In this document: positions 14,067 through 34,797 of the stretch, piece after piece
How the letters are laid out: every line of letters starts with the position of its first letter
Numbering within the stretch: position 1 is the first letter of the stretch
NCBI GenBank assembly: GCA_030615605.1
Contig: JAUWYY010000005.1
Span: 119,067 to 183,066, forward strand
DNA: 64,000 nucleotides
Source of the DNA: a bacterium
Lineage (GTDB): Bacteria; Armatimonadota; Zipacnadia; Zipacnadales; Zipacnadaceae
Direction: 5' to 3'
Position numbers and translations under genes: made by a program
The notes under the pieces: model-generated
Told to the model about the DNA's origin: nothing
The model's input: only the letters and a program-made list of their open reading frames with translations
The model's database searches: none

Positions 14067-14771
14067 ATGAGAACGCAGCGGTTGATTCTACCCAACAAAG
14101 AGATTATCACGTTTCGGCCTGGTCGTGGGGAACAGGCCGACCAAATCTGGCAGGAGTGGGCCAAGCCTCGTCGCGAGCGACGCCTGGAAACCGGTCAGCT
14201 GAGCTTGGACTTCTCGGGGGATCCGGGAGAGCCGTACCAGCGGGCCGAAAGCTCGGCACTTGAGCCACAGGAAGACATCTCTTACTACCTGGTCGGCTCG
14301 CGCTTCCTGACCTGGTGCAGCAAGCTGCTGCTGCGCAGCGCCGACGAAGGGCTGGTCTTCGTGAGCGGGCTGCAGCTAGAGCCGATACTGACACTGGATC
14401 AACTGGTCGGCTTCGGGTTGAAGCGGCAAAGCCTGACCGGAGCTGAGGCCGACCGCGGCTCGGCCCTACGGGCCCTGATCCAGCTCGACTGCTTTGGGCA
14501 CAAACTTCACGGTGTGTTTCACAGCCATCCGGGCGACGGCCCGATAGGCACGCTGCCTTCGGGCATCGACCACGAGACCCAGGCCCGCCTGGAGCGGGGC
14601 GGCTACCCCGTGATCGGGGGCATCTTCTCGCGCGACGGGTATGTGCGGTTCTTCTCTGAGAAAAACCAGTTTGAGGTGATTACCTATGGTACAGGCATCG
14701 AGTCAGCCGGTGAGAAGGTCTTCCGTGTCTGTAAAGACAGTAACCTACAAGACCAAGCCGCTCGTAGCTGA
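14067..14771 (+). CDS. JAB/MPN (JAMM) metallopeptidase, deubiquitinase-like, BilC-like
   Basis: JAMM zinc motif 'HGVFHSHPGDGPIGTLPSGIDHE' (HxH..S..D). Starts 4 nt after the E2-like stop. Confidence 0.8.
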   Translation: MRTQRLILPNKEIITFRPGRGEQADQIWQEWAKPRRERRLETGQLSLDFSGDPGEPYQRAESSALEPQEDISYYLVGSRFLTWCSKLLLRSADEGLVFVSGLQLEPILTLDQLVGFGLKRQSLTGAEADRGSALRALIQLDCFGHKLHGVFHSHPGDGPIGTLPSGIDHETQARLERGGYPVIGGIFSRDGYVRFFSEKNQFEVITYGTGIESAGEKVFRVCKDSNLQDQAARS

Positions 14772-15519
14772 GTGGGGCGAGGACAGATTCAGCGACCGCC
14801 AGGAGCGAGTGCCGGGGTTCGATCAGGACAGCCTGTCCGCTACCTCAGTGGCCTTGGTCGGGTGCGGGGGATTCGGCGGTGAGCTGGGCGAGGGGTTAGC
14901 GCGAAAGGGCGTCGGGAGCCTCTATTTGTTCGACGGGGATATTGTGGAGCTGTCCAACCTCAATCGCCAGCGCTTCTTCCGGGAGGACCTCTACCGCAAC
15001 AAGGCTGTTTGCGCAGCCCAGAATCTGGCTACAGAATGCTCTGGAGGCACTACGATCCAGGGCTTTGCCGCTACTTTCCAGGACATAGCCGAATCGCCCA
15101 GGATGCCGCCAGCCGACCTTATCGTGTGCGGCGTGGACAACAACGAAACGCGCGTCTACTGCGCCCGCTACGCCCTCAACAGGAGCCTACCGGTTGTGTT
15201 GCTGGGGACCGATGAAACCGCTGACTTTGGATACGTCTTTGTCCAGACGCCGGAGCAGGCTTGTTTCGGGTGCCTGTTTCCCCACGCTGTAGCAGAGCAG
15301 GCAGCGGATCCTGCTCCCTGCGCCAAGGTCGCGGCCGTGAAGGATGTTCTCAAGGCTCTCGCGGGTATTGCGCTCTATGCCGTTGACAGCTTGCTGATGC
15401 CCAGAAAACGCCACTGGAACTACCGACAAATCTCTCTGTCCGCAGAGCTGCCCGATGTGACCAGGACGATCCAGAAGCGGCCTGACTGCAAGCTGTGTGG
15501 TCGGTCAGAGGAGGGTTGA
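14686..15519 (+). CDS. E1-like ubiquitin-activating enzyme (ThiF/MoeB/HesA family), BilD-like
   Basis: 'VALVGCGGFGGELGEGLARKGVGSLYLFDGDIVELSNLNRQ' is the canonical ThiF/E1 nucleotide-binding signature. CxxC pairs 'CFGC' and 'CKLCG' (zinc site). The 5' end overlaps the JAB ORF and the true start is uncertain. Confidence 0.85.
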   Translation: MVQASSQPVRRSSVSVKTVTYKTKPLVAEWGEDRFSDRQERVPGFDQDSLSATSVALVGCGGFGGELGEGLARKGVGSLYLFDGDIVELSNLNRQRFFREDLYRNKAVCAAQNLATECSGGTTIQGFAATFQDIAESPRMPPADLIVCGVDNNETRVYCARYALNRSLPVVLLGTDETADFGYVFVQTPEQACFGCLFPHAVAEQAADPAPCAKVAAVKDVLKALAGIALYAVDSLLMPRKRHWNYRQISLSAELPDVTRTIQKRPDCKLCGRSEEG

Positions 15520-16873: not shown

Positions 16874-16907
16874 TGGCGCCATAGTGACTTACAAAGGAGA
16901 GATCGCA

Positions 16908-19091
16908 ATGAACAGACACGAACAGGACTACACTCTGGAAGAGCGCTTGGCCAGGTCCGGCCTCAAAGGCCATCCCGGGGCCACCGCGGCCGCGGCCGCA
17001 GCCGCCCTTTCCGGGGATGAGAATCTGCTCAATCGGCTGGTGCAGTTGCTTGATGTCCACGCGGTCATGAACATGGCCGAAGACCACGCGTTCGTGCTGA
17101 ATCAGCCCGAGCCTGAAGACCTCCCCGCTGAGGGCATACCGTGGGTCTGGACTCTGCGCAACGACGGGTCGGCCTTCCCCTGCCCGTTGCCCACCGAGCA
17201 AGACTGGAATGCCTGCCTGCTGGGCACCACCGGTGTGGGGAAAAGCTACGGCGTCAAACACCTGGCCACCCAGCTGCACTTGGCCGGGGAAAGTGTGTGG
17301 ATCTTCGACGTGGAGAACGAGCACGCTGACGTGGCCGTGCAATTTCCTGCAGAAGAGTTCTTAGTGATCGACTACCAGCAGCTCAAGCGCAACATCTTCC
17401 AGCCAGTGCCCGGGGAAAGCCCCAAGGAGGCTATCCACCGCTGCCGCTCGGTGTGGCGGGAGTCGTGCTTCTTGCGCGACGGCAGCGAGAACATGCTGGG
17501 GGACATTCTGTGGCGGGAATACGAGAATCGTGGCGTGTTCCGCGGCAGTCGCAACTACCTCACGCTCGCCGACGTCTGCACCGACCTGACTCGCAAGAAA
17601 TACCGCACCCGCTCGCGAGAGTTCGCGTACTGGGAGACCTTGATGAACCGGACAACCTCGCTGGAGCAGCTTTTGGGTGAGCCTTATGATTGTGTGGAAG
17701 GCTTTGATCTGAGTGAGCTGGTCGGCAAGTCGATGGTCCTGCGCCTGCGGGGCATGGCTGACCAGCTCCGGCTGTTTTTCCTCAACGACCTTATCACCGC
17801 TGCTCTGACCTGCCAGGCACTGCGTCCGGGCAACACCCTGACCATAGTCATTGAAGAAGCCCACCTGACCTACTCTGCGTGGGAGCGGCGCAGTGACCTG
17901 GCCGAGCCGTGCATTCTGCAGGCTGCTCGCCGCGCCCGCAAGCGAGACACACGGCTGGTTTGGGTGGATCAGGTGCCGGCAGCGATGCCGCCTCAAGTAC
18001 TGGCCACCACCCGGGCCAAGACCATCTTTCGCCTCGAAGACGGCGATTCGAAGCGCACGGTGGCCCGCAGTTGCTCGCTGACGCGGGAGCAGGAGGAGTA
18101 CTTGAGCGAGATTCCCGAGAGATGTGCCGTGCAATTCCTGGGCGGTCTGTATCCCAAGGCGTTTCTGGTCAGGTTTCCCGAGCTCAATTTCATCCAGCCT
18201 ACGGAGGCGGAATTGGCCCGCAGGATGCGCCTCGTTCTGGCAGGCCTTCGGTACATGCCCAGACCGCAGCAGCCCAGCCCACCAACTCAGAAAGTGGTGG
18301 CGAAAACCACCCCAAAGGTGGAAGTCAAGCGCCAGCCTGCTCAGAAGGAGCCCACAGCATCCTCACTCACACGGGATGCCATTGACTACCTGATTGAGAT
18401 TGCTAAACATCCTTTTGAGACGGTAACGGAACGAGATGCCCGGCTGGGTCACAGTGGCTACATGGGTGCACGGCTGAGGGATGAACTGGCAGAACGCGGA
18501 CTGGTCGAGCCCTGCCGTGTCAATACCGGCAGGAGGGGTGGAACCATCGTGCTCTATCAGCCGACAGCCACCGGGTGGCGACACCTGAAGTCGGTGCTGC
18601 GCGTGCAAGTAGACCGCCCTCGCGGCAAAGGCGGCCCGGAACATCAGTACTGGCAGCACCAGGCAGCCGCTTGGTGCCGCAGTCGTTTTCCTGACAGCGA
18701 GATAGTGATAGAAGATCATCGCCTGGGCAAGGCAGTGGACGTGGCAGTGTACCTGCCTGACAGCCGCAAGATCGCCATGGAGATTGCCTTGGGTACGGCC
18801 GAGAAGCAACTGTTTGAAGTCGGCAACATCGAGGCTAACCTGGGTGTGGGCTATGACCAGGTGATCGTGGCGGCACGCACCGAGAAGGACCTCGACCGGA
18901 TCAGACGGACAGTGGTCCAGGAGCTGGGCGAGGATGCTGCTAGCAGAATCGAGTGGCGGCGGTTGCGTGAATTCCTGGAACAATCCGATAACGGCGCCGC
19001 AGAAGTCTTAAGTGATCAGCAGTCCCTGGATCTTTCGACACCTACCACACCAAAGGTGATAGTGAAAACGAAAAATGAGTCTGGCCTGTAG
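16908..19091 (+). CDS. HerA/FtsK-superfamily P-loop ATPase fused to winged-helix and PD-(D/E)xK-like nuclease domain
   Basis: RBS 'AAAGGAGAGATCGCA-ATG'. Walker A 'LLGTTGVGKSYG', Walker B 'LTIVIEEAHL'. C-terminus 'AVDVAVYLPDSRKIAMEIALGTAEK..GNIEANLGVGYDQVIVA' has a nuclease-like fold. Located 70 nt upstream of an integrase. Confidence 0.75.
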   Translation: MNRHEQDYTLEERLARSGLKGHPGATAAAAAAALSGDENLLNRLVQLLDVHAVMNMAEDHAFVLNQPEPEDLPAEGIPWVWTLRNDGSAFPCPLPTEQDWNACLLGTTGVGKSYGVKHLATQLHLAGESVWIFDVENEHADVAVQFPAEEFLVIDYQQLKRNIFQPVPGESPKEAIHRCRSVWRESCFLRDGSENMLGDILWREYENRGVFRGSRNYLTLADVCTDLTRKKYRTRSREFAYWETLMNRTTSLEQLLGEPYDCVEGFDLSELVGKSMVLRLRGMADQLRLFFLNDLITAALTCQALRPGNTLTIVIEEAHLTYSAWERRSDLAEPCILQAARRARKRDTRLVWVDQVPAAMPPQVLATTRAKTIFRLEDGDSKRTVARSCSLTREQEEYLSEIPERCAVQFLGGLYPKAFLVRFPELNFIQPTEAELARRMRLVLAGLRYMPRPQQPSPPTQKVVAKTTPKVEVKRQPAQKEPTASSLTRDAIDYLIEIAKHPFETVTERDARLGHSGYMGARLRDELAERGLVEPCRVNTGRRGGTIVLYQPTATGWRHLKSVLRVQVDRPRGKGGPEHQYWQHQAAAWCRSRFPDSEIVIEDHRLGKAVDVAVYLPDSRKIAMEIALGTAEKQLFEVGNIEANLGVGYDQVIVAARTEKDLDRIRRTVVQELGEDAASRIEWRRLREFLEQSDNGAAEVLSDQQSLDLSTPTTPKVIVKTKNESGL

Positions 19092-19161: not shown

Positions 19162-20235
19162 ATGAGAAGCACTGTAGCTGAACATCAAAGCCAGGCAACG
19201 ACAGTAAGCCCCGGTTGCCAGTTGGGAGCGGCCGTTGTCGCTGACAACGAACAGGGAATCCACAATTTCCAGTACTTGGTGGATTCTTTTCTGACCTATC
19301 TTGAGCAGTACCGCCAAGCTTCTCCGCTTACCCTACAAGCCTATGGCCGGGATCTGAAGCGGCTGCATCGCTTCCTGGTGTCTCATGGCCTAGCGACAAA
19401 TGTCCGCAACATTACCAGCCGCGAGCTGCAGGCCTTTGCTGTCTCGATGAGTGGACTGGCTCCAGCCACGATCACACGGGCACTGAATGCTACCAGTTCG
19501 TTATTCAGTTATTTGATAAGAAGCGGTCTGGCAGAGTCCAACCCGGTCGACAGCGTGATCAAGCCCAAGCAGAGGCCTAGTCTGCCCCAGGGGCCAACCG
19601 TTCAGCAATGCCATCGGTTGGTCCAGGCCACTAGCGATATTCGCGACCGAGTTATGATCATGCTGCTGTTGACTGCGGGCCTGCGCCGCTCTGAGCTGCT
19701 GAATTCGCGAACCAGCGATTTGACAGCCGATCTGAGCCGCATTCGGATTATGGGCAAAGGCGGCAAGGAACGGGTAATACCTCTGCCGGAACAGACCCGG
19801 CGAATACTTGAGCAATACCTGGACGAGAGAGAATCAACCTCAGAGCTTCTCTTCCCTAACACGCGCGCCAAGCGCATGGGCAACTCGACGTTCTATCGAA
19901 TCTTCAAGCGCATTGTGAAGAGAGCCGGGCTTGACCAAGCAGGCATCACCGCCCATAGTCTGCGTCACGCCTATGCCACAATGCTGCTGCACTCGGCAGT
20001 GGATGTGAAGACAGTCCAAGAGCTGCTGGGCCATGCTGACCTGAGCACTACTTCACGCTACCTGCACTCGGATGACGCCACCAAGCAGGCTGCCGCTGAG
20101 GCGCTGCCTGACTTGCTCAGCGCGAATGAGGGGCAGGACACACTGAGCGAGAGCCATAGCGAGGAGGCCACGGCCGTTCACCCTAAGAAATTCCCCGCCA
20201 AGAACCGAATCAAATCAGTCTTCAAACGACTATAG
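19162..20235 (+). CDS. tyrosine recombinase, XerC/XerD-like integrase
   Basis: Core-binding domain plus catalytic 'LRRSE', 'HSLRHAYAT', 'LLGHADLSTTSRYLH'. Confidence 0.85.
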   Translation: MRSTVAEHQSQATTVSPGCQLGAAVVADNEQGIHNFQYLVDSFLTYLEQYRQASPLTLQAYGRDLKRLHRFLVSHGLATNVRNITSRELQAFAVSMSGLAPATITRALNATSSLFSYLIRSGLAESNPVDSVIKPKQRPSLPQGPTVQQCHRLVQATSDIRDRVMIMLLLTAGLRRSELLNSRTSDLTADLSRIRIMGKGGKERVIPLPEQTRRILEQYLDERESTSELLFPNTRAKRMGNSTFYRIFKRIVKRAGLDQAGITAHSLRHAYATMLLHSAVDVKTVQELLGHADLSTTSRYLHSDDATKQAAAEALPDLLSANEGQDTLSESHSEEATAVHPKKFPAKNRIKSVFKRL

Positions 20236-21395: not shown

Positions 21396-22445
21396 GTGGG
21401 TGGCACTTTCGACAGCCTGAGCCGGGATGCCAGACCTCCGGCCGCAGACTCGACGGCACAAATCCCAACGCCAGAACGTGTCTGGGCAGAGCTTGTCCAG
21501 CTCTGCGCAGTAGGTATGGGTTTCGACAGCCAGATGAGCCTGCCGCATCGACAATTCCAGGAGGACTTGCCTGCTGTCTTCGACCTGAGCCAGAGACACG
21601 GGGTGACGGGACTAGCCTATGAGGGATGCGAGAGAATGGGATATGCCAAAGCTATGGATCCGCACCTTATCAGACAATCAGCAATAAGCTTGCTGCTTAC
21701 AGGAGCAAGGCAGAAGCAGCACGGTCTAGCAATCGCAGAGAGCACAGATGCGCTGGAGAGCGCCGGCATCCGTAGCGTGGTGCTCAAAGGGCTGGCCACA
21801 GCCCATATGTGCTACTCTGACCCGGCGTTACGGCCCTCTGGCGACATTGACCTTCTTGTGGATGTTGACAACAAAGAACGCGCGATAGCGGCGTTGCTCA
21901 ATATTGGCTACGAGGTCCGGGCGGATCCCGTGCCCACCAGTCATATTCTGGCATTTTATTACGCGATAAGCTTAATTAGGGACGGCATTACCATTGACCT
22001 TCACTGGGACCTGCTGAACTGGGGCAGGGAGATCCCAGAGAGCCCGACGATAGAGATTGCAGAGAGGATGCTCAACCGTCGGGCCCTCAGGAAGCTGGGT
22101 GAGGCCGAAGCTTGCGTTCTGACGCCGGGCGACGCGCTGTTGAGCTCCTGCCTTCACCTGTTCGCTCACCGCGGAGAGCGGCGTCTTCTGTGGCTGTGTG
22201 ACACAGCTGCGTTGGCCAGGCATCTCAGGCCTAACCAGTGGTCCGGGATCCGAGGAGAATTAGCGCGGTCCGGCCGTATGGAAGTGTTAGGCACTGCAGT
22301 TCGCACGACACTGGCGCAGGCATGCCGTGATTTTGGCATACCCACTGGACTGAAGTTCTGCAAGGGACTGCCGTGCAGTCGTGCACTACAGGACCTGTTC
22401 GTGTGGCGGCCAGACCTGCACCCGAGGCACAACTTTGATCGCTAG
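21396..22445 (+). CDS. nucleotidyltransferase-family protein (NTP_transf_5-like) of HPr-rel-A-type RiPP cluster
   Basis: 'GIRSVVLKGLATAHMCYSDPALRPSGDIDLLVDVDNKERAIAALLNIGYEV' is the minimal nucleotidyltransferase motif seen next to PqqD/HprK-related kinase genes. Confidence 0.6.
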   Translation: MGGTFDSLSRDARPPAADSTAQIPTPERVWAELVQLCAVGMGFDSQMSLPHRQFQEDLPAVFDLSQRHGVTGLAYEGCERMGYAKAMDPHLIRQSAISLLLTGARQKQHGLAIAESTDALESAGIRSVVLKGLATAHMCYSDPALRPSGDIDLLVDVDNKERAIAALLNIGYEVRADPVPTSHILAFYYAISLIRDGITIDLHWDLLNWGREIPESPTIEIAERMLNRRALRKLGEAEACVLTPGDALLSSCLHLFAHRGERRLLWLCDTAALARHLRPNQWSGIRGELARSGRMEVLGTAVRTTLAQACRDFGIPTGLKFCKGLPCSRALQDLFVWRPDLHPRHNFDR

Positions 22446-22907: not shown

Positions 22908-23121
22908 CCGCCCTCCCTTGCATCCAGATTCCCCAAGTAGTAACATTCAACTGGGCTCGTTCTCAGGGGCAAGGACAGCGACTCGTATGACTTGACAAAA
23001 AGCGCAGTACCTGGCATAATGGGCACATCGTGCGATTATCTCGCGCTGGCGGATTCACTAAAGCGAGACGGATTTAGTAATAGGGGGTACGTGGCAATCT
23101 GCCAGCAAGGGGTGGTGTTAG

Positions 23122-23432
23122 TGTCAAGAAACGATTCGGACCTGGCGCAGTGCGTGGTCAAATCTATCGATACAGTCTCAGAAAGAGTCGGAGAGCAGGT
23201 ATTCGTGTTATCAACACGAGATAATAGATTATTTACCTTCAATGGGGTTGGTGCCGAAATCTGGGAGCTCTTGGATGGGACAAGAACCACAGACGACATA
23301 GTCCAAGCCGTGTGTTCGAGGTTCCATGTCCGTCGTGCAGACGCCCGAAGGGACGTGTCACTGTTTCTCCAACATCTGGCGCAACGGGGTCTGACAGATG
23401 TGTTTGCCAACCTCGCATGCCGCGAAGATTAA
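23122..23432 (+). CDS. PqqD-family RiPP recognition element (RRE) protein
   Basis: 'FVLSTRDNRLFTFNGVGAEIWELLDGTRTTDDIVQAVCSRF...DVSLFLQHLAQRGL' matches the PqqD pattern. Start chosen at the GTG with a GGGGTGG RBS. The ORF is open from 22992. Confidence 0.65.
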
Positions 23433-23530: not shown

Positions 23531-24340
23531 ATGCAGGCGGGAAGAGGTGTACGGCAAGTTATTCGGTACACTGCGAAGAAGATACTCAGGATAGGCCATT
23601 GCCTTTCATGCTCTGTCAAACGCCATGGCCTCAACGCCAATGCGGACACGGGCCGAGCCTTGGACCTTGGCTCGGTGAAACTGTCACTTGTCAAGCGGGC
23701 GATTCAGGCACAAGGCGGCTTGATGCTGGAATTTGGGGGGTACAGCATGATGCCCAGCATCCGACCTGGGAATACGCTTAAGGTAGTGAAGGCTAGTCCT
23801 GATACCCTCACAACAGGAGATGTGATAGCATTCTTGGCCGGGAGACGAATTGTGGTGCATCGGATTGTGGGGTTGAAACATGGCTGGCGGAAGTGGTACT
23901 TCGTCACCAAAGGGGATAATTGTCAAGTCGAAGATTCACTCGTTGCACCACACCAAGTGCTTGGAATAGTGTGTAAAATACAGACGGGGGCACTAGGACC
24001 TGAACTATCAAGCTCTGTCACTACCAGTACTATCGGGGGATATGAAATGGACCACCAAGCAAGGCCCGTGGCCAAGCCAGGTGTCATATGTCGTAAAGAG
24101 GATGCCGACGGTGTCCTGTTCGACCACGGTACAGGATCCGCAAAGATCCTGAACAGCGTAGGACTCATCGTGTGGGGTTGCTGTGATGGCAGTTGGACGC
24201 TGTCGTCGATCATTGACATGGTTCACAAGCGGTTCCTCGACGTACCGCGCGAGACCATCTCTGCCGATGTCGACAAGTTTGTAATGGAATTGGAAGAGCT
24301 CGAGTTTCTGAGCATTGCAGAGAAGGAGCTCAGCAAGTGA
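23531..24340 (+). CDS. S24/S26 (signal-peptidase-I-like) serine peptidase fused to a C-terminal PqqD-like domain
   Basis: RBS 'AAGGAGCAT-ATG'. 'GYSMMPSI' (Ser nucleophile box) and 'TKGDN' (Lys). C-terminus 'VLFDHGTGSAKILNSVGLIVWGCCDGSWTLSSIIDMV...VDKFVMELEELEFL' is PqqD-like. Confidence 0.65.
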   Translation: MQAGRGVRQVIRYTAKKILRIGHCLSCSVKRHGLNANADTGRALDLGSVKLSLVKRAIQAQGGLMLEFGGYSMMPSIRPGNTLKVVKASPDTLTTGDVIAFLAGRRIVVHRIVGLKHGWRKWYFVTKGDNCQVEDSLVAPHQVLGIVCKIQTGALGPELSSSVTTSTIGGYEMDHQARPVAKPGVICRKEDADGVLFDHGTGSAKILNSVGLIVWGCCDGSWTLSSIIDMVHKRFLDVPRETISADVDKFVMELEELEFLSIAEKELSK

Positions 24341-25383
24341 AGGACCATCTGCCATCCGCGCCTTTTGCTGCTTCTGTGGCGATTACAGCCCGTTGCAATC
24401 TCCGGTGTAAACACTGCTTTGCTACAGGAGGCGCTCCTCTCGATGACGAGCTTTCTACACCTGAGCTCATCGAATTAGTGCATGGTTTAGCCCGTGCCAA
24501 GATCTTCTGGGTAACCGTGACAGGGGGAGAGCCGCTTTGCCATGATGACTTGCTGGACATCCTCAGCAGCATTGAGGAACACAACATGCGATGCAGTCTG
24601 AACACAAACTGCACCTTGGTGTCTAAGAGTGTGGCTCAGAAGCTAGCTGCTGTTCCTGTACGTGGAGGGATATCAGTGAGCCTAGACGGGTCGAAGGCGG
24701 TGGTGGTCGATGCTATCCGGGGCGCTGGAGTCTTCAAAAGGACGGTTATTGGGATCGAGCAGCTAATTGAGTGTGGACTCACGGTTCGAGGCGTCACTGT
24801 GGTCAACAAGTACAATCAGATGGATCTGCTCAACATTGCCCGACTTGCAAGGGAGCTAGGACTTGTCGAAATAGACTTCAACGACATGGTGGGCGCTGGC
24901 TGCGCCAGCGTTAACGCACTGCAGCTTCAACTGACGCCTTCACAAAGGAAGTACGCGGTTGACATAGTTGACCAACTCTCGGAAGAGTATCCTGGATTCA
25001 TAGGCGGTGCCTACCTTCAATGGGGAAGGCAGCTGAAAGGTTTCTCGAAGAGTCCTGAAAGGTTGTTGGAAGGCAAACAAAACACTCTGGATGGGTGCGG
25101 AGCTGCGTTTAGTGCGTGCACCATTAGACCTGACGGGTGGGTCGTTCCTTGTGACGCACTGTGGGATGTGAAGGCCGGCAATGTTAGACAAGAAGACATT
25201 GTGTACATATGGCGAAGTTCCCGGGTTTTCAACGAATTTCGAAGGCTCAAAACTGTCAATTTGGGCCAAGTGCCAGGCTGCAGTGACTGCCAGTACAATA
25301 CGCTGTGCCACGGAGGATGTCGTGCCTCCGCCTACCATGCAACTGGTAACTTGGCGGGCCGTGACCCATTCTGTTGGTATTGA
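24337..25383 (+). CDS. radical SAM enzyme with C-terminal SPASM domain (RiPP maturase 1)
   Basis: 'CNLRCKHC' (CxxxCxxC). C-terminal Cys cluster 'GCGAAFSAC...PCD...CSDCQYNTLCHGGCRASAY'. 4-nt overlap with the upstream gene. Confidence 0.85.
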   Translation: MKDHLPSAPFAASVAITARCNLRCKHCFATGGAPLDDELSTPELIELVHGLARAKIFWVTVTGGEPLCHDDLLDILSSIEEHNMRCSLNTNCTLVSKSVAQKLAAVPVRGGISVSLDGSKAVVVDAIRGAGVFKRTVIGIEQLIECGLTVRGVTVVNKYNQMDLLNIARLARELGLVEIDFNDMVGAGCASVNALQLQLTPSQRKYAVDIVDQLSEEYPGFIGGAYLQWGRQLKGFSKSPERLLEGKQNTLDGCGAAFSACTIRPDGWVVPCDALWDVKAGNVRQEDIVYIWRSSRVFNEFRRLKTVNLGQVPGCSDCQYNTLCHGGCRASAYHATGNLAGRDPFCWY

Positions 25384-25410: not shown

Positions 25411-26502
25411 GTGGAAAGAGCGTGCCCCAAACTCAGGACGATGTCGTTGCACGTCACGGGCAGATGTAATTTGAGGTGCCGCCATTGCTGGGTAAGCCCG
25501 GCCCCAGCTGAGTGCTCGCAGATCGGCAGCGCAGAACTCAGCCTTGCCGAGATTGACGCTGTCATGTCCGAGGCGGTTACCCTCGGATTAGGCTCAGTAA
25601 CAGTAACCGGGGGGGAGCCGCTATTGAGACCAGACATACTGCAAGTACTTCGATGCCTCCGTAGTCACGGTCTCTCGGCATCGCTTGAGACAAATGGCAC
25701 ACTGGTTGATGATCGAATCGCGGAAGACCTTGGTGGTGTGAGATTGGCCGTGGTAGCGGTGAGCTTGGATGGCGCGTGTGGGGATACACATGACAGGTTT
25801 CGCGGCGTTATCGGCGCATTTGAAGCCACAGTTCACGCCATCGAATTGCTCAAGAAGCGGGGCGTTTTTGTGCAGGTCATAACCTGTGTGTGGAAGGGTA
25901 ACTGTGACGAATTGCGTAGCATTTTCGAACTGGCTTGCCGTTTGGGAGTGGACGAATTGAAAATCACCCCAATCTCGGCATTTGGTCGCGCTAGCAACAA
26001 GATGAGCACGAAGCAACTACGCTTGTCGATGCCAGCACAGTTGGAACTTCACCAACGCGTGAGTTCGTGGGTCAGCGAATCGGGGCCAACACGTGCATTC
26101 TTTTCTGTACCGTACGCGTTTCGACCATTGGACAGCCTAGCCAAGAGTATGCATCCGTGTCCGCTTCACACCCGTCTGGGGGTACTGCACGACGGTCGCG
26201 TTTCTATTTGCGGGATCGGAGAAGCAGATGGGAAGCTCCTTTTCGGCAACATTCGTGAGACTTCCTTGGCACAGTTATGGCATCAGAGTCTTGGTCTGGC
26301 AGAAATACGGAGGAGAATCCCCTCCGAACTCGAAGGGGTATGTGGCAACTGCATTCTGAAAACATACTGTCTCGGATTCTGCCGATCCGCGGCATATTTG
26401 GAGAGCGGTTCTGTTACGGCTCCTAATTCGTTCTGTCAAGAGGCGCTCGAAAGGGGATTGTTCCCACGCTCCAGGCTGATTGATCCCAATCTAGCTACAT
26501 GA
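25411..26502 (+). CDS. radical SAM enzyme with C-terminal SPASM domain (RiPP maturase 2)
   Basis: 'CNLRCRHC'. C-terminal 'CPLH...ICGIGE...CGNCILKTYCLGFCRSAAY'. Start may be the internal ATG (MSLHV). Confidence 0.85.
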   Translation: MERACPKLRTMSLHVTGRCNLRCRHCWVSPAPAECSQIGSAELSLAEIDAVMSEAVTLGLGSVTVTGGEPLLRPDILQVLRCLRSHGLSASLETNGTLVDDRIAEDLGGVRLAVVAVSLDGACGDTHDRFRGVIGAFEATVHAIELLKKRGVFVQVITCVWKGNCDELRSIFELACRLGVDELKITPISAFGRASNKMSTKQLRLSMPAQLELHQRVSSWVSESGPTRAFFSVPYAFRPLDSLAKSMHPCPLHTRLGVLHDGRVSICGIGEADGKLLFGNIRETSLAQLWHQSLGLAEIRRRIPSELEGVCGNCILKTYCLGFCRSAAYLESGSVTAPNSFCQEALERGLFPRSRLIDPNLAT

Positions 26503-27546
26503 TTGCGCACTAGGCAAGGTGCGAAAACGCCGCATTGTTCGCGCGTCAAGAGGATTGAGACGATGGGTCATCTGACACTTGAGATTGGTGGAGTGAGCCT
26601 GCTGGTCCGATCCGAAGGCAAATTGTGTGCGAAGTTACGACCCCTTATGCACGGCTTTCTCGGCGAATCCAATGAGGCCGATTGCGTTGTACACGTAGTG
26701 GTACTCGAAGCGCGACCGGGTAATGGTGGTGTGACAGCAGATTGGGCGAAAGGACTGAGAACGTACGTCCAGGAGCAATGCACAAGGTTGTTTCCTAGAT
26801 CCCGCTTGGGCCCTCAGTTCGACCGGGTTGTGGAGTCGAGAGTCGGGGGTTTGTCCCCGTACTGTGACTCCGAAAGATTTCGTGATTGCTTCGACAGATT
26901 TCGCGGATGCGAAGGGGGGCACATTGTATGCCACATTGGGTTCGACCACGTCACATTCCTGGACAGGACCGAAGGGACTGGCACACTGTTTGGGCTGAGC
27001 GGCGCTTGGGGAGGTTTTCCGTGTGATCGTCGGCTGTTGTGGTTGGCCACAACTTGGTCCGCACTTGTGCCACCGTCCGATGGGCTGTTGCTGCATGCGG
27101 CAGCGATTGTGAAGGGTGCCCAGTCTTATATATTCGCTGGCGAATCCGGAGCGGGCAAGACGACGGTGGCCGAGCGATCGCCTGCAAGTAATGTGCTGAC
27201 GGACGAGATTGTGGCCGTGCGTAAGGTAGGAGACGAAGTACGCGCGTACAGCACGCCTTGGCGGCAGGCGGAGGGGACAGCGGACAAGAGCCGAGAAGCG
27301 ATTGTACAGAAGGTGTTCTTCCTTAGGCACGGGGATCGCACCTACTTCCGCGAGTGCCAACAGAATGAGGCGGTGCCCTGGCTGATCGCAACTGAATATG
27401 AGACTATGTACTCAGTACTAGTAGATCCGGCTCGGACAAAGGGAGTGTTCAGATCTTGCTGTCAGCTGGCAAACAATGTGGGCTGTTATGAGATGTACTT
27501 TCACAAGGACAGAGATTTCTGGTGCGAGTTGACCCTCTTGACATAG
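26503..27546 (+). CDS. HprK-related kinase (HPr kinase C-terminal-domain-like P-loop protein)
   Basis: P-loop 'IFAGESGAGKTTVAE' in a context resembling the HPr kinase C-domain. Clustered with PqqD and nucleotidyltransferase as in TIGRFAM 'HPr-rel' systems. Start could be the internal MGHLTL. Confidence 0.55.
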   Translation: MRTRQGAKTPHCSRVKRIETMGHLTLEIGGVSLLVRSEGKLCAKLRPLMHGFLGESNEADCVVHVVVLEARPGNGGVTADWAKGLRTYVQEQCTRLFPRSRLGPQFDRVVESRVGGLSPYCDSERFRDCFDRFRGCEGGHIVCHIGFDHVTFLDRTEGTGTLFGLSGAWGGFPCDRRLLWLATTWSALVPPSDGLLLHAAAIVKGAQSYIFAGESGAGKTTVAERSPASNVLTDEIVAVRKVGDEVRAYSTPWRQAEGTADKSREAIVQKVFFLRHGDRTYFRECQQNEAVPWLIATEYETMYSVLVDPARTKGVFRSCCQLANNVGCYEMYFHKDRDFWCELTLLT

Positions 27547-27566
27547 ATTGAGGTATGTGGTATAAT
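27538..27566 (+). promoter_or_regulatory. consensus sigma70 promoter: TTGACA-17nt-TGgTATAAT
   Basis: TTGACA at 27538-27543, exactly 17 nt, then TATAAT at 27561-27566 preceded by TGg (extended -10). It overlaps the kinase stop codon and is oriented toward the precursor-peptide ORF about 320 nt downstream. Confidence 0.6.
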
Positions 27567-27892
27567 ATGTCCCTGGGGTAGCCGAGTGTGGCTCACGGAA
27601 CAGGAGGACAAACGCGAACCAACCACATGAGTGCACGGTGTTACATGATCCACGGGGGAAATGGCTCCAGAATTGGCCCTGGGGGGGAGTGGTGAGTCTG
27701 GCCGGGTAAGCCCTCGGAAGAACGGCTGCGGAGTCTACACAAGGTGGGACCTCGCGGCTCAGCCCCGGCTCAGAGCGACGAAAACCAGCGTGTGCTTGAG
27801 GCGAAGAATAGACTAGAGCGCAAAACGAAGTGCCAACTAGGCGCCACTAGTATGTTAGCATATTGCGTGAAGCTAAAGGCAGGTGTGTGAAC

Positions 27893-28093
27893 ATGGGTGA
27901 ATTAGATAGTAAGACTGCTATAGGATCGACGGACAGCGAAATCAGTGTCCAGTACGAGCCGCCTCGTGTGCTTGATCTCGGGGAGCTCGGCGAACAGGCG
28001 TGGGGGGCCGGACCTTTGGGAACGTGCACGAGTCCCGGAAACAGCCCAGGTAGACCCGGCACGTGCGTGAATCCCGGCAATAGCCCATTGTAA
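27893..28093 (+). CDS. candidate RiPP precursor peptide (66 aa) with tandem Cys-containing core repeat
   Basis: RBS 'AGGCAGGTGTGTGAAC-ATG'. Acidic leader 'MGELDSKTAIGSTDSEISVQYEPPRVLDLGELGEQAWGAGP'. Core 'LGTCTSPGNSPGRPGTCVNPGNSPL' is two copies of GTCxxPGNSP. Located between the maturase genes and the ABC exporter. Confidence 0.55.
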   Translation: MGELDSKTAIGSTDSEISVQYEPPRVLDLGELGEQAWGAGPLGTCTSPGNSPGRPGTCVNPGNSPL

Positions 28094-29018
28094 TAGCGCC
28101 ACGTCGAACAGAAACCGTCCGCGGATGCTGCGCGGCCAAGCAGGCGGGTGGGGGCCATATAGTGTGCAGGTCGGGCAAACTGCTGCCCACCACGCAACGA
28201 ACTGGGCGCAGAGTGGTGCTCGGGTCCGGAGGAAGCGGGTGGGTGTCGCGATCAGTGTACGTTGTGGCCTACTGGGATGCGTGCAGACGGGTAGCTATGT
28301 GAGCGCTGTATCTATTGCCCACAGTACGTTTTGGTGCAAAGTGTGGAAGCCGGTCCTTCAGCGACGAGGTGGGATAATGAACGGCTTTGTGCGGAGAGAG
28401 ACAAGGCCGTGCAGGTTGTGGAACGAGTTCTTCGATCTCCGTGGCACTCGGTGGTGACGATACCATGCGTGGATGTCAGCGGGAGCCGGTATCGGGGCGG
28501 GACAGTGGCTTCCCGAGTGGTGAGACATGTCATACGTACTGGCACCGGAAGTGCGGAGCTGTCTGTGTAGTACGGCAACCATCGGGCAGACATTAAGAGT
28601 CAGCCTTATCAAGAGTTGTCGAGGGCTGCGACAAACAAATTATCTGGGCGACACACCCAAAACTCCTGAGTTATTCACTGGTGCGGCAGACTGGCTGAGG
28701 GCACACACATGTGGGTGCCGTGGTGATTGGCTTCTCCAGAAGCCGGGGTGCTCGCACACACTGGTATTAGCGGCTCTCCCATGCTGATTGCACTCATGTA
28801 CAACGGAGTCGCCTCTATCTTGCGCCTGCTCACATGGTTCCTATCGCCGCATTTCGGACGCGATCCCATTCAGAGCAAGGAGGTTCCCCACTCGTCAGGC
28901 TTATGATAGGAGGAGCGCAAGGAGTCCCGCAACCCCCCACAACGCGGGCGTCTGCGCGTTTTCCAACCAATGCTTTCGTGTCTGCCTCACCGTGCTCCCA
29001 CCGTGGATTCTCCGAGAG

Positions 29019-30953
29019 CTACATGCGGTAACGCTCTGCTTGCAAGCCGAACAATTTCGCATAAGTGCCACCAATACACAGCAGGGCCTCATGCGAGCCG
29101 GCCTCAATGATTCTACCGTTTGCCAGCACGAGGATATGATGGGCCATCCTCGTCGTAGAAAACCGATGCGAGATCAACAAGGTCGTCTTGCCGGTCGCCA
29201 ATTTGCCGGCTCGCTTGTATAGATCATGTTCGGCCCTAGCATCAAGCGCTGCCGTAGGCTCATCGAGTACTACAATCGGCGTATCGCGCATAAAGCCGCG
29301 TGCTAGTGCGATCTTTTGCCATTCGCCAGTTGAAAGATCTGTCGATCCCTCAAAGGTACGTCCAAGAACTGTGTCATAGCCCTTTGCCAGCTTCGCAATC
29401 AACTGGTCGGCTGCTGAGCGCTCGGCTGCCCGGGCGACTGATGCCATGTCGTCAACTTGGCTGACGTCACCGAGTCCAACGTTGTCCCGCGCTGTCAACT
29501 CATAACGGACAAAGTCCTGGAAAACCACACTGAACAACCCTCGTAGATAGTCTACATCGTAGTCCCTAATATCTAATCCGTCAAGAAGAATCTGTCCTTC
29601 CACAGGATCATACAGACGTAGGAGCAGCTTTACGAGCGTACTCTTCCCAGCACCGTTTTCTCCGACCAGAGCAGCAGTTGTGCCACCATCAATCCCAAGC
29701 GTCACCCCCTGTAAGACCATCTGGTTCGTACCAGGATATCGAAAATGAACGTTCCTGAATTCTATCTCAGGCGCCTCAGACACCGAAATCATACGCTTCT
29801 CCGACTTGGGCCAGGTAGCTCCCCTGAGCAGACTTCCTTCAAGCGATTGCGGATCCAAGTCTAAGAAATCAAAAAGGTTCTGGAGAAACAAAGCCCCCTC
29901 GTACCCGTACCCGATATTCGTAGACAATATCGTAAGCTGATTGATCGTCGCCCCAATGGCTGAGAAATAGAGAGACACGTCGCCAACGCTGATGGTGCCC
30001 TGCAGAGCCCGAAGCACAACATAACCCCACCCCCCCGCGAGCCCCACGGCTGTCACTATTCCGAGCCCGAGCATCATGCGACTGCGGAGCAGCACAAGTC
30101 CCACATTCTCAGTGAAGAACTTTCGCCATACATTCCAAGTCTCGTCTATCAAGTAGTCTGCCAAGCCAAAGACGCGGATTTCCTTCGCGGCGTCTCGCCC
30201 CGTCAGCAGGTTGCAAAGGTAGGTTACCAGTCTGGTCTCGGGGGCGCGCTGTGTCACCACACTCCAGTTCAGTCGAGCATATCGGCAGTAACCTACAGCG
30301 TAGGGAAGTGAGACGGCGACCGCCCCGACTGCAGCCAGCCAGTGAAAACGAACAAGGACGACTATCATTGACGACAGGGTAACCACCGCTTGAATCAGCA
30401 TAAGGAACCATTGTATGGCACCAGCTACTCTGTCAACACTTGCCCTCGCATTCTCAAGCTTGTCGTAGAAGGTTGGGGTCTCAAAGAAAGCTAGATCCAA
30501 CCGTGCAGCCTTTCGAAGAATACGGAGATTGACGTGCTGGCGCACAAGATCTGAGAAGATCTCGCGGGTGTTGACACTCATACTCGCCTCAACCTGTCTA
30601 ATGACCAAGAGTACGAACTGGGCGCAAAGTAGCCACAATAGGGTGTGAACATTGTCCTGATGTTGTGTGTGTGTAGTCGTGATCGTGGAAGTTATCTCAT
30701 CAAGAAACAGTTTGATGATCCACATCTGGGCGACCGGCGTTAGGCCAGCCACGACGAATGGAACGATGGCGCTCAGCATTCGGCCAGGGCTCACATCCCA
30801 TCCAAGGCGAAATGCAGTTGCGTAGCTGTTGACAGTCTGTTTGACTTCCGCGGACGCCGATGCCAGCCGGTCCGTTACCCTCATCACTGTGCTCCCGCAA
30901 ACGGAGATTGTTGCCAGAGATAGCTCTCCCGAAAGAGAAGGTACGCCATTCAA
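29019..30953 (-). CDS. ABC transporter, fused permease/ATP-binding protein (exporter type)
   Basis: N-terminal six-TM domain. Walker A 'GENGAGKSTL', signature 'LSTGEWQKIALAR', Walker B 'IVVLDEPTAALD', H-loop 'LLISHR'. Confidence 0.85.
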   Translation of the reverse strand: MNGVPSLSGELSLATISVCGSTVMRVTDRLASASAEVKQTVNSYATAFRLGWDVSPGRMLSAIVPFVVAGLTPVAQMWIIKLFLDEITSTITTTHTQHQDNVHTLLWLLCAQFVLLVIRQVEASMSVNTREIFSDLVRQHVNLRILRKAARLDLAFFETPTFYDKLENARASVDRVAGAIQWFLMLIQAVVTLSSMIVVLVRFHWLAAVGAVAVSLPYAVGYCRYARLNWSVVTQRAPETRLVTYLCNLLTGRDAAKEIRVFGLADYLIDETWNVWRKFFTENVGLVLLRSRMMLGLGIVTAVGLAGGWGYVVLRALQGTISVGDVSLYFSAIGATINQLTILSTNIGYGYEGALFLQNLFDFLDLDPQSLEGSLLRGATWPKSEKRMISVSEAPEIEFRNVHFRYPGTNQMVLQGVTLGIDGGTTAALVGENGAGKSTLVKLLLRLYDPVEGQILLDGLDIRDYDVDYLRGLFSVVFQDFVRYELTARDNVGLGDVSQVDDMASVARAAERSAADQLIAKLAKGYDTVLGRTFEGSTDLSTGEWQKIALARGFMRDTPIVVLDEPTAALDARAEHDLYKRAGKLATGKTTLLISHRFSTTRMAHHILVLANGRIIEAGSHEALLCIGGTYAKLFGLQAERYRM

Positions 30954-31155: not shown

Positions 31156-31900
31156 TTGAAAAGTGCGGCACCCCTTAAACTTAATCAGGGCGGGGGACTG
31201 GCCGTTCGGGAGCTACTGAGCATTGTCCCAGATGGGTTTGAGCCTACAGGAGAAGTGGTGCATACCGACATGAGATGGTGGACACAGATTCGTATCCAGG
31301 TACTGCGCGAGGGGGCCAGCAAGCGTCAGATTCTGCGAGAGACGAGCATCCACTGGAGTACGCTGCAGAAGATCCTGGAGTATCCGGAGCCTCCCGGTTA
31401 CCGACAGAGCAAACCTCGTGCGCCCAGCCCAAGCTAGGTCCCCACATTGGTCGTATCCAGCAGTGGAACAAGACCAGACGGTGTCCAAAGAGCAGTGCCA
31501 CACCACTAAACGCATCTTTGAGCGGCTGCAAGCCGAGGGCTACATCGGCGGCTATACACAAGTGAACGCCAAGGTGCGGGGACTGCAGCAGCTCAGGCAG
31601 GGAGTTCATATGTCGCTAGCGCACCGGCCGGGCGAAGCGCAGATGGATATGGGCCAGGCCCTGGTAAAGCAACGAGGCCAGCTTGGGAAGGTGTTCTTCT
31701 TCGTAATGTGCTTGCCCTACGCGGATGCTTTGCTTGTGCAAACCTTCCCCCGCGCCTGCACCGAGACGTTCTGGGAATTCCACCGGCGGGCGTTTGCTCT
31801 CTTCGCCGGGGTCCCCCTGATCATCTACGACAATGATTGGGTGTTGATCGCTAAGATCCTGGGAGGGCATGAGCGGGCGCTGACTGGCAGCAGAGGATGA
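31156..31900 (+). pseudogene. IS21-family transposase IstA fragment (frameshifted, truncated)
   Basis: HTH 'MRWWTQIRIQVLREGASKRQILRETSIHWSTLQKIL' in one frame. A second frame carries 'TKRIFERLQAEGYIGGYTQV..PGEAQMDMG..LPYADAL..IIYDNDWV'. The protein ends prematurely. Confidence 0.6.
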
Positions 31901-31976
31901 GTCGGCCACAACGAAGGCCAGAGTACACGTTATTTGTTGGCCCGATTTGTCCGAATAGATAGGAGGACATAGTATA

Positions 31977-32339
31977 GTGGACCCCAAAAACTGGACAACA
32001 GAAATGGGTACCAGAAGTAGCATGACCAAGCGAAAGACGTATACGGCAGCCTTCAAGGCCAAGGTAGTATTAGAGCTTTTGCGGGAGGAGAAGCCGCTGG
32101 CGCAAGTGGCGGCTGAGTACGAGGTGCATCCCAGCCAGTTGCGCAAATGGAAGCAGAAGGCGGTGGAGCACCTGCCTAGCCTGTTTACAGACAGCAAGCA
32201 GGATCAGGCGCAGCAGCAAGCCGAACATCAACGCCGGCTTGAACAGCTCTACGCAGAGATCGGGCGGTTGACCACGCAGATAGGGTGGTTGAAAAAAAGC
32301 TGGTATCGACCAGCTCCCGGAGTGAGCGGCGCAAGATGA
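31977..32339 (+). mobile_element. IS3-family transposase OrfA
   Basis: 'KRKTYTAAFKAKVVLELLREEKPLAQVAAEYEVHPSQLRKWKQKAVE' (IS3 OrfA HTH), followed by a leucine zipper and the A-rich slippery region 'GGTTGAAAAAAAG'. Confidence 0.75.
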
Positions 32340-32860
32340 TCGAACGGGACCATCGACAACTGCCGCTGACGGTGCAGTGCCAGTTGCTGGGCGTAAGTCG
32401 TTCCAGTGTGTACTACCGGCCGGTGGCGGTCTCGCCTGAAGAGGTGGGGCTCAAGCACCGGATCGATGAGATCTACACGGCGTGGCCGTTTTACGGTTCG
32501 CGGCGGCTCACGGCGCAACTACGGCGGGAAGGTCATCAGATCAACCGCAAGCGGGTGCAACGCTACATGCGCGAGATGGGTATATATGCTATCTGTCCGC
32601 GGCCGAACTTGACCCGCCGAGCGGGTGGATCTATCTGGTGGCGGTGGTGGACTGGCACTCGCGCTACGTGGTCAGTTGGGAGCTGGTTCAGACCGTGGAT
32701 TACTGCACACCCTGGGAGGTCTATTCTGACTCGCTGGGCCGGCTTGCCCCCCGGGGGGGGCAGCGGTGGGCACAGCGAACAACCCTTTCAAACCCAAGCC
32801 AGGATACCAATATGAATCTAAAAAAGAGCGCTATGCCTGTCTTAACAACGGGGCCCACCT
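32285..32860 (+). pseudogene. IS3-family transposase OrfB, frameshifted and truncated
   Basis: 'LSRSSVYY..IDEIYTAWPFYGSRRLTAQLRREGHQINRKRVQRYMREMGI' in one frame. 'IYLVAVVDWHSRYVVSWEL' (DDE first-Asp region) is in another frame. No complete DDE domain. Confidence 0.65.
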
Positions 32861-33894: not shown

Positions 33895-34797
33895 ATGCGA
33901 ATCGAAGAGCTGCATCAGGAGTTTCTCACTTACCTGTCCGTCGAGCGCAACTGCAGTCCCCTCACAATTCAGGCGTACAAGTCCGACGGACGAATGTTTC
34001 TTCAGTCATTGGAGGAACAGGGAGTACCCCCGGAAGTCGAGGCCATCACCAAGCAGGCTGTGCGTCAGTACGTCGTGTGGCTGCGGGAGCGGGGCCTCAA
34101 GCCGTCGTCAGTGGCCCGACGGATCAATTCTCTGCGGTCGTTCTGGAACTACCTGTGGGACAACGACTACACGAAGACCAACCCGTTCCGGCACGTGACG
34201 CTTCCCCGCCAGCCACGCAATCTGCCCACATACTTGTCCGAGGACGAGTGTCGGCGGGTGATCAAAGCTGCGGGCAACCAGCAGTGCCAGTTTGACGCCA
34301 TTCGCGACAAAGCAGTGCTGATGTTCATGATGTTCACGGGCGCTCGGCGTAGTGAAGTGCTGCGCCTGCACTGGAGCGACGTAGACTTGGACCAGCAGAT
34401 AGTGCGCTTCTCGGCAGCCAAGGGCGACCGGACGAGGGTATTACCGCTGGCGCGGGAAGTCTGCGATGTGCTGCACGAGTGGCGAGAGGTGCGGCCCGAA
34501 AGCAGCCACAGACTCGTATTCACTGCCAAGTGGGGAGCCCGACTAGGACGCTATGGACTCGCGAGCGCACTGCGTCGAGCACTGGAGTCGGCAGGTATCG
34601 ACCGGCCCGACATTACACCCCACAAACTGCGCCACTCATTTGCCTGCATGCTGCTGAGCAACGGTGCTGACCTGCACTGCCTGCAGGAGATGCTGGGCCA
34701 CAGCCGCCTGGACACAACCGGCATCTATCTGCATGCCACAGCCGACAGCCTCCGCGCTGCCATGAGAAGACATCCGCTGTCGAGCGACTGCGGTTAG
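33895..34797 (+). CDS. tyrosine recombinase XerC/XerD-like integrase
   Basis: 'TGARRSEVLRL', 'HKLRHSFACML', 'LGHSRLDTTGIYLH' catalytic motifs. SAM-like N-terminal domain 'LTYLSVERNCSPLTIQAYKSD'. Confidence 0.85.
   Translation: MRIEELHQEFLTYLSVERNCSPLTIQAYKSDGRMFLQSLEEQGVPPEVEAITKQAVRQYVVWLRERGLKPSSVARRINSLRSFWNYLWDNDYTKTNPFRHVTLPRQPRNLPTYLSEDECRRVIKAAGNQQCQFDAIRDKAVLMFMMFTGARRSEVLRLHWSDVDLDQQIVRFSAAKGDRTRVLPLAREVCDVLHEWREVRPESSHRLVFTAKWGARLGRYGLASALRRALESAGIDRPDITPHKLRHSFACMLLSNGADLHCLQEMLGHSRLDTTGIYLHATADSLRAAMRRHPLSSDCG

Follow-up and report, generated by a model that had tools for sequence, protein, structure and literature searches.

A two-repeat cysteine peptide as the likely precursor of a divergent SynChlorMet-type cassette in an Armatimonadota contig

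Repeated short Cys motifs in a precursor peptide, together with a maturase that combines radical S-adenosylmethionine (rSAM) and SPASM domains, are found in PapB/freyrasin-type ranthipeptides and in SCIFF peptides. In PapB/freyrasin, a ranthipeptide, the cross-links are made repeat by repeat, within C-X3-D repeats. The ranthipeptide class has been described, and the same source reports that StsA bears three Cys-Gly sactionines, StsB being the maturase family (PMC10288494). Tailoring of lasso-peptide Ser by a kinase and a nucleotidyltransferase has also been described (PMC9266682). The SynChlorMet (Scm) system is a widespread rSAM/SPASM system that is defined bioinformatically; a literature search for SynChlorMet/Scm returned no relevant paper and no published product or chemistry. 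Already on record, in NCBIfam, is the Scm-type rSAM/SPASM system of peptides that are made on the ribosome and modified after translation (RiPPs), with a Cys-repeat precursor. New here is a subtype that lies outside every model, represented by an open reading frame (ORF) for a peptide of 66 amino acids (aa) in a 64,000-nucleotide stretch of contig JAUWYY010000005.1 (assembly GCA_030615605.1, from an Armatimonadota bacterium). We refer to this whole stretch as the window, and all coordinates without a locus name are positions in it (Table 1).

In our assessment, the ORF is very probably a genuine RiPP precursor (A peptide) of a divergent SynChlorMet-type cassette. As a first-pass annotation of the DNA had already described, the peptide consists of an acidic leader followed by two near-identical “GTCxxPGNSP” units, each with one Cys. 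The two units are identical at 8/11 residues, and the nucleotide repeat mentioned in the same annotation amounts to 24/33 identical positions in the register LGTCTSPGNSP / PGTCVNPGNSP. Among the codon pairs that specify identical residues in the two units, 3/8 differ synonymously (GGA/GGC twice, AAC/AAT). Because of these synonymous differences, the similarity of the units is better explained by selection on the peptide than by a recent DNA duplication, which points to a repeat that is kept up at the protein level. Translated in all six frames, the window has the GTCxxPGNSP motif in no other place, and the core, LGTCTSPGNSPGRPGTCVNPGNSPL, contains neither Asp nor Glu. The leader carries the motif Y-x-x-P-x-(x)-L-x-L-G, present in this peptide in the fuller form Y-E-P-P-x-x-L-x-L-G. 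In 5/7 members of the subfamily described below, the distance from the Y-x-x-P motif to the first Cys is 24 residues, and the core plan of the subfamily is two C-x-(S/N)-P-G-x-(S/T)-P units.

A word-indexed protein search with the single peptide sequence recovered only the sequence itself, and exhaustive HMMER searching, which covered 1.84 billion representatives, was needed to find P0122 (E = 3e-12), P0123 (3e-8), and P0125 (4e-5). A follow-up profile search added P0126-P0129. Another HMMER match, P0124, is an 832-aa repetitive protein and was discarded as a low-complexity false positive. The same-core peptides are 49-63 aa long (e.g., MKTYKPPIIIELGEMTAEGYDMGILGTCESPGNSPGRPGTCVHPGAAPL, MKKYEKPFIAKVTDMDQELLNEIFLGTCLSPGNSPGRPATCSNPGNSPL, and ...VQYEAPAIVEVGELAEEVLGATCRSPGGTPQGRQAECKSPGSSPINP) and share the core TC-x-SPG-x-x-P ... 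C-x-x-PG-x-x-P in three other lineages. In the resulting alignment (A2), 12 columns are invariant (Y21, P24, T44, C45, S47, P48, G49, P52, G53, C58, G62, and P65), and 10 of these lie in the core. GC content at the loci spans 26-58%; identity to the window is 45-58% for the peptides and just 24-38% for the enzymes.

The gene neighborhood is conserved along with the peptide. In two contigs from biogas fermenters (L090 and L091), the order is NTP_transf_5, PqqD, S26-PqqD, rSAM, rSAM, ScmC, a gap of ~330 bp, and the peptide, which is the order in the window. On L087, a contig from a TARA ocean metagenome, the peptide gene is followed by a double PqqD and then by ScmE-like and ScmF-like genes. A metagenomic contig of 36% GC (L082) bears three tandem, diverged precursor copies of 49-50 aa (positions 598-1099), each with its own Shine-Dalgarno (SD) sequence, followed by PqqD and then an S26 peptidase. 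Judged from these loci, a same-core peptide is always accompanied by a predicted PqqD-type RiPP recognition element (RRE), an S26-type peptidase, and two rSAM/SPASM enzymes, and usually by ScmC and NTP_transf_5. The check that the first-pass annotation had named for its candidate precursor, conservation of the ORF near orthologous clusters, therefore came out in its favor: the core is conserved beside PqqD, S26, paired rSAM/SPASM, and ScmC genes in three other lineages, and the same architecture recurs at most Scm cassettes. A small gene beside a PqqD/RRE gene and modifying enzymes, in an arrangement that is conserved across taxa, is what would be expected of a RiPP precursor.

Two closely related loci (L089 and L091) permit a comparison of codon changes. 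In the leader, there are five synonymous and two nonsynonymous changes in 38 codons. In the core, there are four synonymous and nine nonsynonymous changes in 25 codons, and all nine fall off the C/P/G scaffold. At the level of sequence, the leader thus appears to be under purifying selection and the core x-positions variable, which is a RiPP precursor signature and a sign of translation; the bipartite conservation of leader and core is that of an RRE-dependent RiPP precursor. These data also bear on whether the ORF could have arisen by chance in GC-rich intergenic DNA, the real feature being a noncoding RNA or one of the antisense ORFs at 27847-28197 and 27902-28102. The window does have 57% GC and many overlapping spurious ORFs, two of them antisense over the same DNA, and the peptide has no Pfam or NCBIfam match. 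However, conservation of the amino acid sequence extends to loci of 26-42% GC, with no comparably long antisense ORF over the peptide genes where ORFs were listed; the L089-L091 leader changes are mostly synonymous; an SD precedes every copy; an Rfam search of the window gave no match; and folding of the upstream RNA is not above the level of shuffled sequences (z = 0.35). Conservation across the extremes of GC content and the synonymous bias in the leader exclude a chance ORF, to which we assign a negligible probability. Comparative evidence thus identifies 27893-28093 as a genuine, evolutionarily conserved small gene.

The enzymes encoded upstream place this gene in an Scm context. ScmE and ScmF are the best matches of the respective rSAM enzymes, well ahead of the next families. 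The database homologs closest to the ScmF-like enzyme (5.8 billion clusters searched) share 38-43% identity with it, and JGI gives many of them the name ScmF. The precomputed Pfam annotation of the ScmC-like protein is PF27840 ScmC; its HprK_rel_B and HprK_rel_A matches are weak, and a PDB sequence search with it found no match. Pfam PqqD is clearly matched, and scores against the ScmD model (TIGR04248; cut-off 100) are 37-39 bits. Because these proteins score below the equivalog cut-offs and the closest ScmF relatives are only ~43% identical, we interpret the cluster, from its sequence, as a divergent member of the Scm cassette. It resembles other Scm loci in its two paralogous PqqE-like rSAM/SPASM genes, its PqqD, ScmC-like, and small Cys-containing peptide genes, and a gene order and content that are common to many of those loci. 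It differs from them in that its core consists of two C-x-S-P-G-x-S-P units spaced 13 residues apart, whereas the cores at Scm loci have 3-14 C-x-x-G-x-S-A units spaced by 10; in that it has two PqqD domains, one of them joined to an S26 peptidase; and in that its proteins fall below the curated cut-offs and its peptide does not match the ScmA model.

It should be noted that the peptides of other Scm loci are themselves largely unannotated. With an ScmF alignment, 80 genome loci (L002-L081) were collected and the cassette genes were mapped on each; when the small unannotated ORFs close to the enzymes were clustered, 42 peptides emerged, from 33 Scm loci. Such ORFs are 50-110 aa long and often present in several copies per locus. 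The 42 peptides follow a common plan: a short basic N-terminus, the motif K-Y-E-x-P-x-L-x-x-L, and then 3-14 repeats of C-x-x-G(89%)-x-x-A/P (C-x-x-G-x-S-A/P) with a modal Cys spacing of 10. The distance from the leader motif to the first Cys is 16-23 residues in all but three. A loose regular expression applied within 5 kb of ScmE/F found a candidate ORF in 66/80 loci (104 candidates, vs. 26 in a reversed-sequence control). With a hidden Markov model (HMM) of the 42 peptides, none of which is of the PGNSP type, the window ORF ranks first of 1,537 stop-to-stop segments (E = 0.004); with an HMM of the leader only, it scores E = 0.006 and the next segment E = 2. Scm cassettes occur in Omnitrophota, Desulfobacterota, Chloroflexota, methanogens, and others. 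Against the NCBIfam ScmA model (TIGR04252), the peptides of other Scm loci reach just 14-16 bits in a few subthreshold matches, which indicates that this model overlooks most precursors of the wider family. By its sequence, the window peptide represents a distinct subtype within this family, with two units, a spacing of 13, and a Pro inserted before the conserved Gly.

The leader was described in the first-pass annotation as typical of those bound by an RRE, and the Y-x-x-P-x-(x)-L-x-L-G motif agrees with this. In addition, the leader of P0125 passes an NCBIfam lasso-leader model (NF033521 lasso_leader_L3, 20 bits vs. a cut-off of 19), which is consistent with predicted binding of the leader by an RRE. 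We also considered whether the ORF is a lasso-peptide precursor. The top NCBIfam matches of the first PqqD are lasso_PqqD_Bac (the best), GeoRSP PqqD, and ScmD, each below its cut-off. The locus further resembles lasso systems in its Y-x-x-P-x-L-x-x-x-G-type leader motif and in its HprK-like and nucleotidyltransferase genes, the kinase/nucleotidyltransferase tailoring known from lasso clusters (PMC9266682) being a point of contact. However, the ORFs listed for 14-42 kb, a range that includes the cluster at ~21.4-31 kb, contain no candidate for an Asn-synthetase-like cyclase or for a B2 protease of the transglutaminase-like kind; Asp and Glu, either of which could serve as macrolactam acceptor, are absent from the core, at positions 7-9 and elsewhere; and two rSAM/SPASM genes are instead central in every related locus. 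A lasso precursor is effectively refuted by the missing acceptor residue, plus the lack of cyclase and B2 protease in that range, and we consider it extremely improbable.

A different possibility is that the conserved core yields an intracellular, peptide-derived cofactor or redox carrier, similar to PQQ or mycofactocin, instead of a secreted natural product. The core is unusually conserved across distant lineages, as the invariant columns of A2 indicate, and in this respect resembles PqqA or MftA rather than the usual bacteriocin. With the model of the mycofactocin maturase MftC, the two rSAM enzymes reach 110-144 bits, and with that of PqqE 100-104 bits; PqqE is also among the nearest solved structures. 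Several observations oppose a cofactor. A convergent ATP-binding cassette (ABC) exporter and a signal-peptidase-type protease are encoded at the locus, and the cluster has no dehydrogenase or oxidoreductase partner genes. The three tandem diverged copies in L082, and core x-positions that vary between close relatives, are both typical of exported RiPPs. We therefore regard a cofactor as improbable and retain the view of the ORF as the precursor of an Scm-type RiPP.

What the two rSAM enzymes do to this precursor can be approached by comparison with characterized maturases. As with PapB/freyrasin and SCIFF, the precursor carries a repeated short Cys motif and the maturases are rSAM/SPASM enzymes; one cross-link per repeat, as in PapB/freyrasin, is plausible by analogy. 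The cluster departs from PapB in having two enzymes instead of one, in encoding the RRE as its own protein, in lacking Asp as an acceptor in the core, and in enzyme scores of 68-72 bits with the PapB model (cut-off 340). The StsB sactipeptides provide a second comparison. Within the repeat, Gly is second only to Cys in conservation (89% at +3 across the wide family; invariant at +4 in the window subfamily), and the StsB model matches both rSAM enzymes (E~1e-32 to 1e-35). These matches reach only 113-121 bits (cut-off 625), mainly over the rSAM half, and the architecture of the window repeats is not hairpin-like. Neither enzyme falls in a characterized sacti- or ranthisynthase family: StsB and PapB are below cut-off, and SkfB and CteB in the PDB score no more than 53 bits.

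Several findings weigh against the overall interpretation, or against parts of it. Scans of the peptide with Pfam and NCBIfam produced no model match, and TIGR04252 ScmA (cut-off 35 bits) matched neither the window peptide nor its three close homologs at E<=10. The first-pass annotation had known of no homolog family; this holds insofar as the peptide does not match TIGR04252, but not insofar as the related ScmA family is already catalogued there. The tie to the wider Scm peptide family is through a short leader motif, with E~0.004-0.006 within the window, and every cassette protein scores under the NCBIfam curated equivalog cut-offs. Members of the subfamily are few, ~15 billion proteins having yielded four lineages, and a scan of JGI metagenomes with alignment A3 gave 215 pattern matches, of which 0 were confirmed. 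The AGGTG before the start codon agrees with the plausible SD of the first-pass annotation, and it is weaker than the SDs of the homologous peptides, all of which have GGAGG or AAGGAG 6-10 nt before ATG. Neither the characterized sacti- and ranthisynthases nor the solved structures are close to the rSAM enzymes, so that a thioether product is proposed by analogy. Finally, same-core loci do not have ScmF-like enzymes that group with each other (ranks 11-79 among 83 loci). By contrast, the ScmE-like enzymes of three same-core loci (24337-25383; L087:1647-2690; L090:6523-7569) are mutual top matches among the 83 loci, and this difference suggests, on sequence grounds, that ScmE reads the core subtype and hints that it, and not ScmF, coevolves with the core.

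Given these considerations, the following sequence of events may be proposed. A PqqD domain would bind the Y-E-P-P...L-x-L-G leader and offer the core to both rSAM enzymes, ScmE-like and ScmF-like. The first-pass annotation had seen the two single-Cys units as substrates for two rSAM/SPASM enzymes or for iterative cross-linking. Comparison does not support a pairing of two Cys with two enzymes: relatives with 3-14 Cys also have exactly two such enzymes, and for this reason we do not assign one enzyme to each Cys. Instead, both enzymes would act on both repeat units, each likely performing a different reaction per unit. The most likely of these would be an intra-unit thioether that joins each Cys to a carbon of a Gly, Ser, Asn, or Pro close by, as the chemistry of PapB-type ranthipeptides, made repeat by repeat, and of small-ring sactionines suggests by analogy; the other rSAM enzyme would be expected to make a further modification of another kind. 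The thioether is suggested because no partner is better conserved than Gly and because StsB is known for Cys-Gly sactionines, and we consider this specific chemistry possible, at somewhat below even chances. The RRE-fused S26 peptidase (SMMPS, HR, and GDN motifs) would then cut off the leader, ScmC (with its HprK-like P-loop) and NTP_transf_5 may tailor Ser, much as the analogous lasso-peptide pair does, and the convergent ABC transporter would export the product. A broader proposal can be built on the same elements, although we hold it tentatively and consider it rather unlikely as a whole: the PGNSP-type and the wider C-x-x-G-x-S-A peptides would together form a RiPP class of new chemistry, in which two different rSAM enzymes make two distinct modifications per unit, of which one or both would differ from the classical sacti- or ranthi-thioether, the core subtype is recognized by the ScmE-like enzyme, a soluble RRE-fused S26 protein cleaves the leader, and Ser is phosphorylated or nucleotidylated by ScmC and NTP_transf_5.

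The S26 protein deserves some additional comment. Its match to TIGR02228 sigpep_I_arch (50 bits; cut-off 51.85) spans residues 70-151, PqqD occupies residues 195-259, and the translation contains SMMPS, VVHRIV, and KGDN. The S26 domain of this fusion looks soluble. A kindred arrangement is found at L090:5861-6529 (also a fusion) and at L082:1943-2281 (a separate S26 gene). On this basis, an S26 domain that is fused or adjacent to PqqD/RRE may be a candidate RRE-guided leader peptidase. S26-like matches also occur downstream of ScmC in several further Scm loci. We know of no description of an S26-RRE fusion as a leader protease.

A search of both strands of the 64 kb for TTGACA-N14-TGN-TATAAT with at most one mismatch gave exactly two matches (0.01 expected), P1 and P2, both of which are inside the cluster and on its coding strand. 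P2, ~325 nt upstream of the peptide ATG, is the sole perfect extended-consensus match in the window, and for this reason we predict that the precursor has its own strong sigma-70 promoter. The longest PqqD ORF shares its 5′ end with P1, as does the Logan gene call, which begins at 23019 (ATG); because of this overlap, the true PqqD start is probably further downstream of P1. The 5′ untranslated region (UTR) between P2 and the ATG (27567-27892) is ~320 nt long, and a comparable ScmC-peptide spacer of ~300-330 bp is present in L090/L091. A conserved regulatory RNA in this region was considered and dropped, because the fold was no better than that of shuffled sequences and the DNA showed no similarity to the equivalent spacers of L091, L087, and L082; the Rfam result noted above is in line with this. 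No intrinsic terminator was found on the + strand after the peptide.

Table 1. Positions of the precursor gene, its parts, predicted expression signals, and neighboring cluster genes in the window
Feature	Position	Strand	Details
NTP_transf_5 nucleotidyltransferase-like gene, putative tailoring enzyme	21396-22445	+	Pfam PF14907, 132.7 bits
Predicted promoter P1, TTGACA-17-CATAAT, extended -10 TG	22992-23020	+	11/12 match; before PqqD-to-ScmC operon
PqqD-family RRE protein, ScmD-like	22992-23432	+	Pfam PqqD, 68.2 bits
S26 (SipW/archaeal-type) signal-peptidase-like domain with second PqqD/RRE domain, putative leader peptidase	23531-24340	+	
rSAM/SPASM enzyme, ScmE-like	24337-25383	+	TIGR04250 ScmE, 200.6 bits (cut-off 400); Radical_SAM and SPASM Pfam domains; CNLRCKHC motif
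rSAM/SPASM enzyme, ScmF-like	25411-26502	+	TIGR04251 ScmF, 273.6 bits (cut-off 400)
ScmC-like protein, HprK-related, putative kinase-like tailoring or accessory protein	26503-27546	+	P-loop GESGAGKTT; TIGR04249 ScmC, E=4e-8, 32.9 bits (cut-off 125)
Predicted promoter P2, TTGACA-17-TATAAT, extended -10 TG	27538-27566	+	perfect 12/12 match; overlaps ScmC stop codon
Shine-Dalgarno-like AGGTG	27881-27885	+	7 nt before ATG
Precursor peptide gene	27893-28093	+	66 aa + stop; translation MGELDSKTAIGSTDSEISVQYEPPRVLDLGELGEQAWGAGPLGTCTSPGNSPGRPGTCVNPGNSPL; followed by TAA TAG
Putative leader recognition motif YEPPRVLDLGEL	27953-27988	+	aa 21-32
Core repeat unit 1, GTCTSPGNSPG	28019-28051	+	aa 43-53; Cys45 at 28025-28027
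Core repeat unit 2, GTCVNPGNSPL	28058-28090	+	aa 56-66; Cys58 at 28064-28066
ABC exporter, fused permease and ATPase, MsbA/HlyB-like, putative product exporter	29019-30953	-	convergent with peptide; ABC_tran Pfam domain

The remaining genes near the peptide are also given in Table 1. The NTP_transf_5 gene sits upstream of the operon promoter P1, and a gene of the same family is in the same relative position in L090/L091. The ABC exporter has matches to MsbA and bacteriocin-exporter NCBIfam models, all below cut-off; an ABC gene adjoins the peptide in L089 too, and such a gene occurs in many Scm loci. Between peptide and exporter, the small ORFs at 28239-28457 (+) and 28675-28869 (-) have no recognizable features, and a Pfam scan of the ORF at 28125-28457 (+), which contains the first of these and was the sole downstream small ORF scanned, gave no match.

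Tyrosine recombinases of the phage-integrase family, at 19162-20235 and 33895-34797, bracket the cluster, and insertion sequence/transposase fragments (HTH_21, HTH_Tnp_1; 31418-32815) also flank it. The peptide cluster may lie on a mobile island; its GC content is not clearly distinct from that of the flanks. Further upstream, 14067-15519 (+) encodes a JAMM/MPN+ protein (motif HSHPGDG...SGID) and, with its start overlapped by the former, a ThiF/E1-like protein with PADLOC “E1-E2” matches, possibly a ubiquitin-like conjugation defense module. A 735-aa HerA/DUF87-like ATPase at 16884-19091 (+) matches the PADLOC model mad8, and the first of the two recombinases follows directly after it.

Comparison of loci indicates that most Scm loci bear Cys-repeat peptides with a K-Y-E-x-P leader. 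Within this family, the window peptide is a minimal substrate, with two Cys and two repeats, accompanied by an enzyme set that is clearly delimited and apparently complete and by strong predicted native promoters, and for these reasons it would be a convenient entry point to the function of ScmE and ScmF. The same locus suggests that a signal-peptidase fold of the S26 type, when fused to an RRE, may act as a leader protease.

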